Source: a virus
Strand: one strand, 5' to 3'
UHGV virus genome: UHGV-0269425
Length of the DNA stretch: 10,715 nt
The position numbers are program-made. Each line of letters begins with the position of its first letter. The stretch's first letter is position 1. Below, in pieces: positions 1-6,000 of the stretch.

Positions 1-3000
1 CCCAGCACGCCTATTGCCGCCCACTGAGACGGGGAAACCCTGTCCAGCAACTGCAGGAACCAGTAGCCCGTTCCCACCGCTGACGTGGTGTATGACACAC
101 CTGTTGTGATTTTTTCCATCTGGTACATACCCCGTCTCCCGCAATCCGGAAGCTCACAACAATATAAAGACCACCGGCACACACCGATGGTCCCTTGCGC
201 ATGCTTACATCATCATGTCGCTGTCAGGTGTAGGTTCACCGCCATCTGAAGCACTCCCGTCACCCGCGATACCTTCCGGCTCAGGAACCGCTGGTACGCC
301 CAGCAGCTCATCCAGAATGGCATTCACTTCTGCATCAAGACGCGACTCAAGGTTCTGGCGAAGTTTCTGTTTCAGTACGCTCCGGACTTCTTCAGAGCGC
401 AGGACTTCCTTCACTGCCTCTGCAGTGACCAGGGATGTGATTTCTGACATGGGATTTTCTCGCTGAAAGGGGTTGTTAAGGAGTAACGGGTTCTTCGGGC
501 TTGCTTCCGGCTGACTGACTGGCGCTGATTTTCTCAGCGGCCCTTTTATCAATCTGCCTGCACCAGAAATCGCGCACAGCCCTGTACCCACCCGAAAGAA
601 GATACAGCACACAGACCGCCGTACAGAAGTACAGCATCACCTGATGAATAAATGTCATAATTTCTTACCGTTATGGTTGACAATGAGAATTGTTTTCATT
701 TAAAAACCAATGTACGAAAGCATCTTTTCTTTACATTCTCCATTGGGATTACCTCCGCCAGCTTCCATTCCTGCCGCTGGCGGCTTTTTTTAGCAATTAT
801 GCGGCTGCTCCAGCTTTGTTTGCTTTAACTTCCACCGTATCAATAAGTACAGGGTAGGTTTCTGCACTACCTGTAATATCCGTAATGACAAACCTGTTGA
901 GTCCATTAGCAGTATTGGCCCATTTCACCAGGTCAAACGCCTGTCCATCCACACCATCGAGCACCGGAGTAACATTAATGCTGTTACTGCCCTTAAATTT
1001 AAATGCAAGCGTATGCCAGTCATGGTCGAATGCGCCAAACGTGCCAAGTTCTTTTTGTTGATTAACTGTATGATGGTATGCAACATTAATACTGGCTTTA
1101 TCTGTCTGGACAAAGAAAGAACTCAGATGGCCTTCACCACCCTCACCCGGCCATTCCGCTATTCGCCAGTACAAACCAAAGGCATACTTGTTTCTGGTTG
1201 TCTCAAGATTGACGTTTTCGGGGATTTTAAACCGGACAGCAATTTCCCCGCCTTTTTCCAGTAAAAGTTTTGCCTTGTCTGCAGCAATATCACAGTACAT
1301 TGACCAGGATTTCGCGCTGTTATTTTTCTCAATTCGCAGAGCTTTATTGCCGCTGTCATCAACCAGTGTGCGCCTGCCATACACACCGTCCCAGCCATAG
1401 GGTTTCAGCTGATTGTCTGTAGCTTTTTTGGCATCGTAAAAAATTACAGACTCTGAGGTGGTAACCGGTCTGTCTGGAACAACCACCCCGGCAGTACCAT
1501 TAACAAACGCAGAAGACTTACCCGCGCAGCTCAGAATCGCCGTTGCCAGACGGTCGGAAATAATCCCACGGCGAGCCCATGAACTGAAATGGCTCGCCCT
1601 GTCCTGTGACGTCCAGGTGGCTGAGCTGTCACGCCATTTCGAACCGTAATAACCGATACCCGGAATGTCCGGGTCTTCTTCCGGTTTGTTCGTCGGCACA
1701 TTCACCCCGTTCTCATCGGTCATGAACGGTACGAAATGGATATTCTTTTCCGTTTTATTTTTATAGCTGCCGTACACCGTCTGGTACGTGGATTCGTTCT
1801 TCTGCTTCCAGAAATACGTCGTGTCCCCGCATATCCATGGAACACCGCCAGCAGAGCCACCGACGCACTGGCCTGCCATATCCGCCAGGTCTGCACGGAA
1901 TTTATCAACCAGCGCACCAAACTGTGCGGCATGATTTGCCGGCGTACCGCCAAAATCAAATTCCCCCTGCATCCACACCACGGCAAACAGCACATTTTTC
2001 GGGTTCTTCTCCAGTGCCGCTTTTGTTCGACCGATAAGGTCCTTATACAGCGGCTTGTCCACACCCCAGCGGGTTGAATTCTCCGAGGCGCCACTCGCGT
2101 CACTGTATGTGCCATCAGCTCCGGTGGTGAACGCTGAACCACCACGACAGCACGGAACCAGCAGAATGCCCGCATTCGCCGGTATAAACGGCAGCAGTTT
2201 TTTGGCGATATGCAGCCCCTGCCCCACGGTTCCGTACTGCCCCTTTGACAGGTCCGCTTTCGGATGGTTAAGACGGCTCATGTCCTGCACATCATGCAGA
2301 CAATGGTCCGCCGGAATGATGTCGTTATATTTGCATGCTGCACCGCCCGGTGTCACCGTACTGCGACGCGCTAACTGTTTAATACGTGGATCAGGGCTGT
2401 CGAATGTATCCGGTAATGGCAGTCCCTCACCGTATGACATACCATTGGACTGACCAGCAAGCGCGATCACATAGTAATATTCTGGCGCAACAGAAGGCGC
2501 TGAGGTCGTCGGACGGTTGCCTGGCTCCTCTGGTGATGAGATGCTCCCCTCACTCACAACTGGCTGGATGAACTCCGCACCATAACCAGCTGTCGAAATC
2601 AGCGCACTACCATAAGGCTGCCACCCTTCCTTCAGTTTTTGAGTTATTCGTTTCGCAAGGTCTGACGGCGACGCCGCCCTGACAACATCATAGTGTTTAA
2701 ATGCCATGAATCCTCCCGGCCGGGATAATATTGTGAGTAAAATAAGGAGCGGGCTGAAGTCCGGAAGTTACAGGACAATGGCAGAAGGGAGACTACAGCC
2801 CGCAATTCGAAAAAGGCCGCGCAGTTGCGCAGAGTGATTACTATGGGGTATTATTCGCCAGCTGAAATATTACTTCACGTTTCATTGTTTATTCCTTGCC
2901 GCCCGCGTCTCCCAGCGCGGGCTTTTTTGTCCATAAGAAAGCCCCTCCGGAGAGGGGCTGGAGAGTGGCGCTATGTGCCATTGCATGGTGCCGGGTGCCT

Positions 3001-6000
3001 CCCGGTGAGTTCAGCCCGGTGCCACTAAACCCGCGTCATTCTCGTTTTGATAATCAGAGATTATACCGTCACCAGTCGCCCCTCCGCTCAGGGGGATTCA
3101 CCATGCAGTTTTTTTCTAACAAATTCTTATCCGGGCAGACAACATTCAACTGACTTAATTGTGAGGTATGTAACATTCCTGTTGAACGGATACAAAAAAA
3201 GCCAGCCACCAGGGGAGGCTGGCAAACTCGTAGAGCAAAATGCTGTTACGCAAACTTCGTTACAGGGTTATCCTGCAATACTTAAAATATACAATATTTA
3301 GAAAACTAATAGTGCTATATGAGATTTTTAAGATTTTGTTATTAATTGCGGTCGTACCTTCCTTTCTGTGTACTTTCCGTATAGCTCACAGGATTCTGGG
3401 TACAAAAAAACCCGCGCATCGGCGGGTTCGGCTGCGTGGCAATGTAACCACTCTTATCATGATATGCAGATTTTTACGATCGTAAACTATTTTTTCGCTG
3501 ATAAAATACAGAGCTTCTCCCTCCCGGCAATTCACGCTCAACATACCGATCCATCTCAAGCCTCACTCCCAGCATCATCAGCATGCCTTCAACAATCCCC
3601 TCCGCTTTGTGAAGGCGTTTACCTATACAGGTGTCAGAGCACCCATGTTTCCGTGCCAGCGCCATGAACGTCTCCCCCAACACGTAGTAATCAACCAGCA
3701 AGTCATGCAGATCGCGATTGTTCCGGTAAAGGCGGGCTATGCACCCGCATATCACCATCGCATCATCGTCACAGCACTGTGGACGTGATTTTACTTTTTC
3801 GGGGATCAGTCCCTTAAATCCGGCAGCAATGGGCGACCATGTAACATCCTCATAGTTATTTACCGCCCATGCCCCCCAGCGCTCAAGAACCTGCCGGATA
3901 TCACGCATCAGTATCTTTACCCCATCCGCGATGAACCATAAGGACGCCATTGACGACGGCGTGCTTTTTCGCATCTTTATCATCAATGTATTTTCTGACT
4001 GTAGCACGATTGCAGTTCAGTATTCTGGCGACTTCTGTCTGATTTCCCCTGGTGCAGATCAGTAATTCAGGTATCGTTTGAATTTTAGCATTCATCAAAT
4101 GTTCTCCAGTTCGGTGATTTTTATCCCCACTCTACCGCCAGGCACTTTCACGCCGCGAATTACGCGAATGTCATCGAATTGCTCGTCGTCTTCCGCAAAT
4201 CCGGCGTGGATAAGAGAGTCGAGTAAACCTTTCAGGATGTTATCGAGGTCGCGACGGCGGGAATCTGGTGGTTCAGCAATAATTGTGATGCGAAGTCGTG
4301 ATTTAGTGAAAATGTCTAATCTGAGTTGCCGGATGATTTGCTGTACGTCTTTTCGGTATTTCTGGCCTTTATCGCTGATGTAGTACTGGCTTCCCCGTCT
4401 TCGCCAGTAGGTATTCACCGTCGGCGGCCAGGGAAGCACAAACTCATATTCATTCATGACTTAATCTTCCCCTCCTTCAGCAATATCGCCTGCGTCCTGA
4501 TCACGCCTTCCAGGTGGTAAAGTCTGGCGTCGTTGTTGTCGAGAATTCGGGTGCGTCGGTCGATCTCCGCGTGGCAGTCACTACAAGCCCATGCACCGAT
4601 CAGGTCGTCAGGCTTCATTCCCGTTCCGCAAATTCCAGCCATCCGGTAATGTGTCAGAACTGTCGTTTCAGGATTGCCATTGCATACGCCGTAAATCCGT
4701 ACCTGGCATTCTCTGCCGCGCGCTTCTTTGCGTAGGTTAGCCATTAAGCAGCCTCCCCTGTTACTTTCAGCATTCCGTTATCGAGCGGCTTTCTGGTCAG
4801 CCACTGTTGACCACGCCCGGTGATTTTTGTGGTGAACGAGATCTGTATTCCGTGATTTGTATTGACCGCTGTTTCTTTCACTGTGAAATAGCCGCGATCC
4901 ATATATTCCTGCATTGGCACATTGCGCCGGGAACCTGAAGCAATAAGGATTTTGTGATCGCGCATCCACGCAAACAGTTTGTTTGGACCAATACCAACAA
5001 CCTTTGCAAAGTTTCCAATCAAAATTCCGCTGGCCTCGCCAACTCGATCGGCAAACTCAACTTTAGGTGCTGCGAGAGCAAGCTGTTTCTCCAGTTCAGC
5101 CTTCTGGTCTTCAAGGTCGGCCGCAAGGCGCAATGCCTCAGAAAAGGTTTGTGGTATTTTCGCGGTTGCCCCTTCAAGCTCTCGCCAACGGTCAACAAGA
5201 CGAGCGGTGAATTCCGGCGACAATTGGGCGACGACAATAATGCTGTCTCGCTTACCTTGTTCGCCTTCGAAGACGTAAGCCTCGACACTACGGCGCAGTC
5301 CTAAGTTATTGATTTTTTCGAAAACCTGCAATGCAGGAAGTTGAATAACTCCAGATTCAGCCAGGCGCTCTATTGATATTTTTACGTTATCTGGACGACT
5401 CCCCACCAACTCAGCGATTTCAATGCTGGTCATTTTGATGATGCTGCTATTTATCAGCTCATTCATTGTCATGTCCTCTCATATTGAAAATTCAGCAATA
5501 AAAAACCCAGCCGAAGCTGGGTTTGTTAAGTTGTCAATTGTCAGTAGCGATGCAGTGAAGGCGGCAACTCTTTGTTCTTAAGCCTTTCCCATGCCAGAAG
5601 GTTCGTCGGCCCGTCAGGCTCATAAATATCTATATCCCGCGTGTGATTAATTAAAACGCCCCTCGCCCTCCCGATGATATACGAGAACTCATAGCCGTAG
5701 TCGTGGCATATGCCGGAATAGCCAGACTGAATCAGTTTTAATGCGGGATACAACTCACGGAACAATGCCTGTGAGCGGTTGGCATAATCCCACAGCCATA
5801 CAAGGCTGTCTGTTTCTTTTGCGGAAAGCCCGTTGGGCTTCTTCTCTTGTTTGCCAGTATTTTTCTCGCACTGGCTGAAATAGCAGTCTTCCAGTTTTTC
5901 GAACACATCCCACGCCTGATCGGTTTCTAGCATTTTGGCGTGACGGGCTGCGCCTCGTTCTGTCCAGAGGATGAGGGAGCGGGCTTTCGGGGAAATTTGT

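Follow-up and report, generated by a model that had tools for sequence, protein, structure and literature searches.

The interval between the antiterminator gene Q and the sialate O-acetylesterase gene nanS-p was analyzed in the virus genome UHGV-0269425, in a window of 10,715 nucleotides (nt), which is the whole stretch of DNA under study. We are highly confident that this interval controls the late genes of a lambdoid prophage of the Shiga toxin (Stx) phage type, with a Q protein of 144 amino acids (aa), and that the cargo slot after the late terminator tR' is unoccupied. The identity, positions and folds of the elements, their family membership, the absence of cargo and the distribution of the arrangement are direct observations. 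The architecture is already known. It is found here in a known, recurrent cargo-free state, and every element has a characterised homologue.

The Q gene lies on the minus strand at 3474-3908. It has 435 base pairs (bp), encodes 144 aa and matches Pfam PF06530 (Phage_antitermQ) with E = 2.1e-50. The same 435-bp gene is annotated by RefSeq in the 99.5%-identical locus of E. coli O104:H4, where RefSeq has no annotation between Q and the esterase gene. The nanS-p gene (797-2707, minus strand; Pfam DUF1737, SASA and DUF6645) is the first late gene past the control region, and the copies in relatives are annotated as NanS or as SASA-family esterase. The genes in this part of the window are all on the minus strand. 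The original prediction had described a junction of about 770 bp without tRNA genes, stx or a convincing open reading frame (ORF), and the results bear this out. The interval measures 766 bp. ARAGORN found no tRNA gene in the whole window, and Rfam found none either. Searches for remnants of Stx1A, Stx1B, Stx2A and Stx2B with tblastn gave chance-level matches (E of at least 2.5), as did blastn with the cargo cassette of phage SC370 and the tRNA cassette of phage phi296 (E = 0.056 and 0.61), and none of these matches fell inside the interval.

The longest ORF in the interval (3240-3485, plus strand, 81 aa) is antisense to the late leader. One explanation is that the interval encodes small plus-strand proteins, from this ORF and from a second one at 3047-3301. 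Both ORFs match PHROG families strongly (phrog_17306 and phrog_28474, E = 4e-50 and 5e-46), and such ORFs are annotated in older phage records and by PHANOTATE. However, these families have no known function and most likely gather the same ORF calls from near-identical Stx phages. Both ORFs are also antisense to experimentally mapped RNA and are not called by RefSeq. The substitution pattern of ORF 3240-3485 is noncoding: 8 of the 13 sites that differ from prophage Sp15 of E. coli O157:H7 Sakai are at codon position 2, and nine nonsynonymous changes stand against four synonymous ones, with one change making a stop in Sp15. Coding by the antisense ORFs was rejected on this pattern despite the strong PHROG matches, and we consider it very improbable. 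The entries phrog_17306 and phrog_28474 (window 3047-3485, plus strand) are probably spurious ORF calls over a small-RNA gene in many Stx-phage records.

The region from Q to tR' is closely related to that of Stx phages. Positions 3700-3195 are about 98% identical to SC370, Stx2 II and Sakai Sp5 and 97.8% identical to phi24B, and positions 3480-3195 are 97.6% identical to VT2-Sakai. The segment was found in 302 phage records, almost all of them Stx-converting, and 289 of the 302 cover at least 80% of the StxS leader. The late promoter pR' (3459-3486, minus strand) consists of a -35 element TTTACG, a 16-nt spacer and a -10 element TATCAT (3464-3459), and it overlaps the stop codon of Q. It was the sole minus-strand sigma-70-like match in the interval in the promoter scan, and its sequence is invariant among six relatives. 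The feature "pR', putative late promoter" annotated in SC370 (AF548457 494-522) and phi24B maps to 3487-3459. The start site is placed at the A at 3452, 7 nt past the -10 hexamer, and the leader begins 22 nt after the Q stop codon. This start reproduces the published distance of 258 nt to tR'. A putative Q-loading and pause region follows at 3438-3446 (minus strand), with a -10-like TACATT at +7 to +12 (3446-3441). The "qut" of phi24B maps to 3445-3438. By analogy with lambdoid Q systems, 3438-3446 may act as a sigma-dependent pause element.

In enterohemorrhagic E. coli Sakai, Sy, Lan and Tree (2020) used differential RNA sequencing, Term-seq and RLM-RACE (rapid amplification of cDNA ends, mediated by RNA ligase) and found 258 nt between the pR' start and the 3' end at tR' (PMC7547250). 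RNase E cleaves this RNA of 258 nt at +173 (GU/AUU), and the stable 3' fragment, StxS, is bound by Hfq, activates rpoS translation and represses stx1B (PMC7547250). StxS co-occurs with the 144-aa Q class and is also carried by non-toxigenic phages (PMC7547250). The window conforms to this map. The StxS precursor (StxS-L, the pR'-to-tR' leader) occupies 3195-3452 on the minus strand, and over its 258 nt it is 97.3% identical to the copy in Sakai Sp5 and 94.2% identical to that in Sp15. Counting from 3452, the U-tract ends at +258/+259 (3195/3194). The RNase E motif GUAUU lies at 3277-3281 (minus strand, +172 to +176), and the predicted cut after the U at 3280 (+173) equals the published cleavage site (PMC7547250). 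The processed Hfq-binding small RNA predicted from the homologue, StxS-S, would occupy 3195-3279 on the minus strand, 85 nt from the cleavage site; the Sakai RNA is about 74 nt on Northern blots (PMC7547250). Apart from two bases of the terminator loop, this stretch is the same as the Sakai Sp5 copy, and its function is presumed from that homologue only. The leader thus combines homology to StxS1 and StxS2 of Sakai, the 258-nt spacing, the RNase E site at +173 and a position directly downstream of a 144-aa Q. The original prediction of a short late transcript like 6S RNA or StxS, with Q-dependent read-through, was well founded: the leader is StxS itself, 98% identical to that of Stx2 phages, and the read-through would take place as in the homologues. 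A covariance-model match of Qrr over StxS-S (23.4 bits against a threshold of 50) was far below threshold and was treated as chance.

An AT-rich stretch had been noticed between about 3240 and 3360, and it is real: the proportion of G and C is 0.24-0.30 over 3240-3359. The late promoter had been placed inside it, and this does not hold. The alternative explanation is that the real late promoter lies in the stretch, so that late transcription is regulated solely by the terminator at 3223-3194 and the later ones. The Stx2 II record does list putative -35 and -10 signals, which map to 3318-3313 and 3298-3293. Against these signals, the promoter scan of the stretch gave no minus-strand match and a single match on the plus strand, at 3259-3288. 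The primary start in Sakai lies 258 nt upstream of tR' and adjoins Q (PMC7547250). A 5' end inside the AT-rich stretch was recovered in Sakai by RLM-RACE without tobacco acid pyrophosphatase, and the 258-nt form builds up when RNase E is inactivated (PMC7547250); this 5' end therefore comes from processing. A late promoter in the AT-rich stretch was rejected on the promoter scan and the Sakai start-site mapping, and we find it scarcely credible. The start site, the RNase E site and tR' fit the published StxS map, and the AT-rich stretch, which holds the RNase E site, therefore forms the body of the StxS precursor.

Two intrinsic terminators belong to the late leader. The first, t1 (3401-3429, minus strand), has an 8-bp GC-rich stem followed by U7 and covers +24 to +52. 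The first 52 nt of the leader fold with -21.9 kcal/mol (z = -3.46), and t1 is invariant in six relatives. The SC370 and phi24B records mark a possible rho-independent terminator here, mapping to 3426-3404, and t1 has been annotated since early Stx-phage records; the StxS paper is silent on it (PMC7547250). Since the 258-nt species is made in Sakai, t1 must leak. It is likely that t1 is the first barrier silencing the constitutive pR' and that tR' is the second. The late terminator tR' (3194-3223, minus strand), found by the terminator scan and by folding, forms the 3' end of StxS. It is annotated as a terminator in SC370, phi24B and Stx2 II, and the SC370 and phi24B terminator maps to 3223-3195. 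Term-seq in Sakai placed a 3' end at the equivalent position (PMC7547250). The high identity with Stx phages stops at the end of the tR' U-tract.

The terminator scan of 2500-3700 found six terminator-like sites, compared with 1.3 +/- 1.2 in shuffled sequences. The three minus-strand terminators and the one plus-strand terminator of the original prediction were all recovered, with the right coordinates. The minus-strand stems lie at 3429-3408, 3225-3206 and 2959-2940, and folding gave the four main hairpins z-scores of -2.9 to -3.6 relative to shuffled controls. Two of the terminators had been said to share the context tacaaaaaaa about 205 bp apart. The sharing was confirmed, with a spacing of 210 bp instead: the window has exactly two occurrences of TACAAAAAAA (3191-3200 and 3401-3410), against 0.06 expected. 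This sequence corresponds to the two U-tracts, read as their complementary A-run, together with GTA. The idea that the terminators form one array for one transcript was not upheld. Of the terminators, the late leader includes just those at 3429-3401 and 3223-3194, and those at 2959-2934 (minus) and 2901-2928 (plus) end two convergent small-RNA genes apart from it. Another weak terminator-like hairpin with CCUUUUU was found by the scan on the minus strand at 2808-2832 (stem 2832-2817; fold -9.1 kcal/mol, z = -1.9). All relatives share the block 2708-2832 with 94-99% identity; the hairpin sits at the edge of this block and is probably part of the 5' leader of nanS-p.

The empty cargo (moron) junction was located at 3165-3193, without strand, from local BLAST breakpoints and junction alignments. 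Compared with SC370, the window is without 1790 bp (787-2576 of the SC370 record), which hold pT, ileZ-argN-argO, a terminator and stx2AB. Compared with the stx-negative phi296, it is without a 473-bp tRNA module, and the same applies to TL-2011a, Nil3 and Lahn2. No stxA or stxB follows tR' and the ileZ-argN-argO module is absent, so the window lacks what marks a Stx-converting phage. The borders are clean: about 10 nt past the tR' U-tract still resemble the relatives, and then their post-cargo sequence begins. The suggestion of an empty or decayed stx cargo site can thus be narrowed to an empty one, with clean borders and no remnants; there are no decay products to support decay. The site occurs in three states with identical left borders, namely tRNA genes plus stx (SC370, Sp5), tRNA genes only (phi296, TL-2011a, Nil3, Lahn2) and empty (the window), and Sakai Sp15 presents a fourth state, stx1 without the tRNA module. 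Of 5426 complete E. coli genomes, 88 have the empty junction, among them the O104:H4 outbreak lineage, which is 99.5% identical to the window over 2500-3700; tR' itself was found in 682 genomes. Strain ERL04-3476 matches the window at 100% across the junction.

The empty state may have arisen by secondary loss, in which the tRNA cassette, with or without stx, was deleted between short similar sequences after tR' and after the cassette terminator. We regard this as possible, but rather less probable than not. The three states of one site with identical left borders are consistent with it, and so is the right flank of the window, which is 96-97% identical to phi296. There is also a short imperfect match over the crossover: CAGCAATG stands about 20 nt past tR' in phi296, CAGTGAAATG stands after the phi296 cassette, and the window has CAGGAATG. 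However, the microhomology among CAGCAATG, CAGGAATG and CAGTGAAATG is imperfect, covers 8-10 nt and is well within chance. The borders also coincide with module borders, at the ends of two successive terminators, which the insertion of a promoter-gene-terminator moron fits equally well. No remnants are left to give the polarity of the change, and the presence of stx1 without the tRNA cassette in Sp15 means that modules come and go independently. A simple deletion from a Sp5-like phage was excluded, since the identity of the right flank to Sp5 and SC370 is no more than 78-82%. The repeat at 3165-3193, compared with phi296 4020-4040 and 3560-3580, might mark a microhomology-mediated deletion and is within chance.

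Beyond the empty slot, the first element is an STnc100-family small-RNA gene (Rfam RF02076) at 2929-3135 on the minus strand. The cmscan match reached 167.8 bits, against a gathering threshold of 47 (E = 1e-38), and spans model positions 1-206 of 206. The gene is a homologue of EcOnc05 and EcOnc27 of Sakai and is related to PasD (bioRxiv 10.64898/2026.05.13.724894). Its terminator (2934-2959, minus strand) folds with -19.8 kcal/mol (z = -2.97) and is the 3' hairpin of the Rfam consensus structure. In Shiga toxin-producing E. coli, STnc100 lies 75 nt downstream of stx2 (PMC12370729). In SC370, STnc100 follows stx2B (207.7 bits), and AsxR converges on it one base away. The context of STnc100, from Q or the cargo site to the esterase gene, is the same in SC370, phi296, Sp4 and Sp15. 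A conserved block CAGTTGA(C/A) upstream of STnc100 is a possible -35 element, with no consensus-grade -10 following it. The sizes of STnc100-type RNAs on Sakai Northern blots, 222-247 nt, exceed the 206-nt model.

A second small RNA, a homologue of EcOnc08 of Sakai Sp4, converges on STnc100 from the plus strand at 2855-2928 (the 5' limit being provisional), with a stem at 2901-2922 and a T-run at 2923-2928 (fold z = -3.61). Positions 2840-2935 are 92.8% identical to Sp4 and 91.8% identical to Sp15, and the Hfq-binding peak of EcOnc08 maps to about 2855-2926 on the plus strand. Tree et al. (2014) reported convergent small RNAs past the moron site in Sakai prophages Sp3, 4, 5, 9, 10, 11, 15 and 17 (PMC4104026). 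On the late strand, the Hfq-bound RNAs were EcOnc27 of Sp5 (about 235/247 nt) and EcOnc05 of Sp4 (about 222 nt); those on the other strand were AsxR of Sp5 and EcOnc08/21 of Sp4, the latter about 271 nt on a Northern blot (PMC4104026). The window has the same convergence on an STnc100-type RNA past the moron site. The antisense RNA occupies the AsxR position of Sp5 and SC370, and its 3' end (2928) corresponds to that of AsxR (2813 in the SC370 record). An assignment to AsxR or AgvB (RF02703, RF02702) was rejected: neither covariance model matched at E <= 1, and the body and terminator stem are different. The AsxR copy of SC370 scores 88.1 bits on its anti-small-RNA model. Given the homology, the EcOnc08 peak and the lack of an AsxR or AgvB match, we filed the antisense RNA with EcOnc08/21/42.

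Two sub-threshold promoter candidates for the antisense RNA were rejected. The candidate TTGCGC-18-TATTAT (2825-2854), found by eye, would give an RNA of about 68 nt, and ATGCCA-17-GATAAT (2701-2729), from the scan, would give one of about 190 nt, compared with about 271 nt on the Sakai Northern blot. An anti-hemB match over the back-to-back terminators (19.2 bits against 49.5) was far below threshold and likewise dismissed as chance. A literature search by sequence found no published mention of the plus-strand terminator sequence. A plus-strand hairpin with T7 at 771-783, in the gap (717-791) that separates the nanS-p stop (797) from the late gene after it, resembles the terminator of an antisense small RNA. 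The sole Rfam match of 717-791 was Esr41, far below threshold (20.7 bits against 102, E = 0.88). Genes of the PasA/PasC type are placed on this side of the esterase gene (bioRxiv 10.64898/2026.05.13.724894), and 717-791 may be one of them.

Taken together with the homologues, these elements suggest how the region may work; transcription, processing, Hfq binding, rpoS activation and Q read-through would proceed as they do in the relatives. In the lysogen, the constitutive pR' would start at 3452 and give a short leader, ending at t1 or, for transcripts that pass t1, at tR' (+258). An RNase E cut at +173 of the 258-nt precursor would free the Hfq-binding StxS. The STnc100 RNA and the antisense RNA would be made in the lysogen from promoters of their own. 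Upon induction, Q would load onto RNA polymerase near the start site, and the Q-modified polymerase would pass t1, tR', the STnc100 terminator and the hairpin at 2832-2817 and enter nanS-p and the lysis genes. Toxin phages have a self-contained tRNA module and the stx operon directly past tR', whereas here tR' abuts the post-cargo sequence. In this sequence lie two small-RNA genes that converge and have a terminator each: on the late strand STnc100 (EcOnc05/27 type), and on the other strand an RNA of the EcOnc08/21 type.

Several points weigh against the assignment of the interval as a working, cargo-free late control region. All functional steps are drawn from homologues with 92-98% identity. 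The promoter scan and inspection gave no consensus-grade promoter upstream of either the STnc100 RNA or the antisense RNA. Neither the AsxR nor the AgvB covariance model recognises the plus-strand RNA, so the anti-small-RNA function is not transferable to it. The terminator t1 looks strong, yet Sakai makes the 258-nt species. The empty junction is missing from all 289 deposited phage genomes that have this tR', so the inducibility of prophages with this arrangement is in question; its absence there may reflect a sequencing bias toward Stx phages.

We also considered that StxS, STnc100 and the EcOnc08-type RNA are a retained three-RNA island under selection for effects on the host, or that t1 yields a separate RNA of some 50 nt or determines the amount of StxS. 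This is unlikely in our view. If such an island existed, lineages such as O104:H4 would gain StxS dosage, and with it more RpoS activation, from a non-toxin prophage.

The early part of the window carries two tandem immunity modules of the P1/P7 type on the minus strand (6298-6496 and 7889-8076). Both contain a C4 antisense RNA and isrK, scoring 66-67 and 69-75 bits, respectively, and an a1b1 target accompanies them in the first copy. Each module is preceded by the same promoter-like site, TTGACG-18-TATATT (6519-6490 and 8112-8083), and lies upstream of an antirepressor gene of the ORF6N/P22_AR_C type (5541-6245 and 7164-7835). A duplicated antirepressor control unit is unusual in one prophage. 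A 248-aa DUF4145 protein is encoded at 9009-9755 on the plus strand, opposite to the surrounding early genes, and its gene looks like an inserted accessory gene. The late half of the window is 97-99% like prophages of the O104:H4 type, and the early half matches other lineages. None of the 5426 complete E. coli genomes contains at least 80% of the 10.7-kb window in one place (best coverage 77%). With halves that match different lineages and no such genome, the window is a prophage mosaic.

As a discovery the arrangement carries little weight: pR', both leader terminators, StxS, STnc100, the convergent antisense RNA and the moron slot past tR' are all published, and the empty arrangement is already present in dozens of public genomes. 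The analysis is useful for annotation, since five RNA features that lacked annotation now have exact coordinates, in a region where pipelines annotate nothing or call spurious antisense ORFs. The region is also a natural control, in that a toxin-free prophage can still supply StxS, which is relevant to work on StxS and RpoS in strains with several lambdoid prophages.

The region can be compared with several known systems. The pR'-6S RNA-tR' region of phage lambda works on the same principle: its late promoter is constitutive, the leader RNA made in the lysogen is short and terminated, and Q-modified polymerase reads through to the lysis genes. Lambda-type Q antitermination, however, is defined by a Q protein of the lambda family whose binding element lies between -35 and -10, and the Q protein of the window matches only PF06530 and is not a member of that family. 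The leader is 258 nt long, compared with 194 nt in lambda, has an extra early terminator and, in its homologues, is processed to a trans-acting Hfq-dependent small RNA. The late leaders of Sp5 and Sp15 of O157:H7 Sakai, 933W, SC370 and phi24B have the same 144-aa Q, pR', t1, 258-nt leader, RNase E site and tR'. Compared with these Stx-phage leaders, the window is without pT, ileZ-argN-argO and the stx operon, and its tR' U-tract is one base longer. The small-RNA pairs of Tree et al. (2014), EcOnc27-AsxR in Sp5 and EcOnc05-EcOnc08/21 in Sp4, occupy the same position, with back-to-back terminators and the STnc100 member on the late strand (PMC4104026); the antisense partner in the window is of the EcOnc08/21/42 type (92% identity), not of the 51-60-nt AsxR/AgvB type. 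The Stx-negative phages phi296, TL-2011a, PPwrbA, Nil3 and Lahn2 have the same block from Q through StxS to tR' (98%), also without stx. They also share the block from STnc100 to nanS-p with the window (96-97% to phi296), but they keep a 473-bp module of three tRNA genes with its own terminator between tR' and STnc100, where the window has none. The identical empty arrangement is present in the non-Stx prophage of O104:H4 (2011C-3493, O3K_RS12520 to O3K_RS12525), the rest of which differs from the window, and in 87 other genomes.

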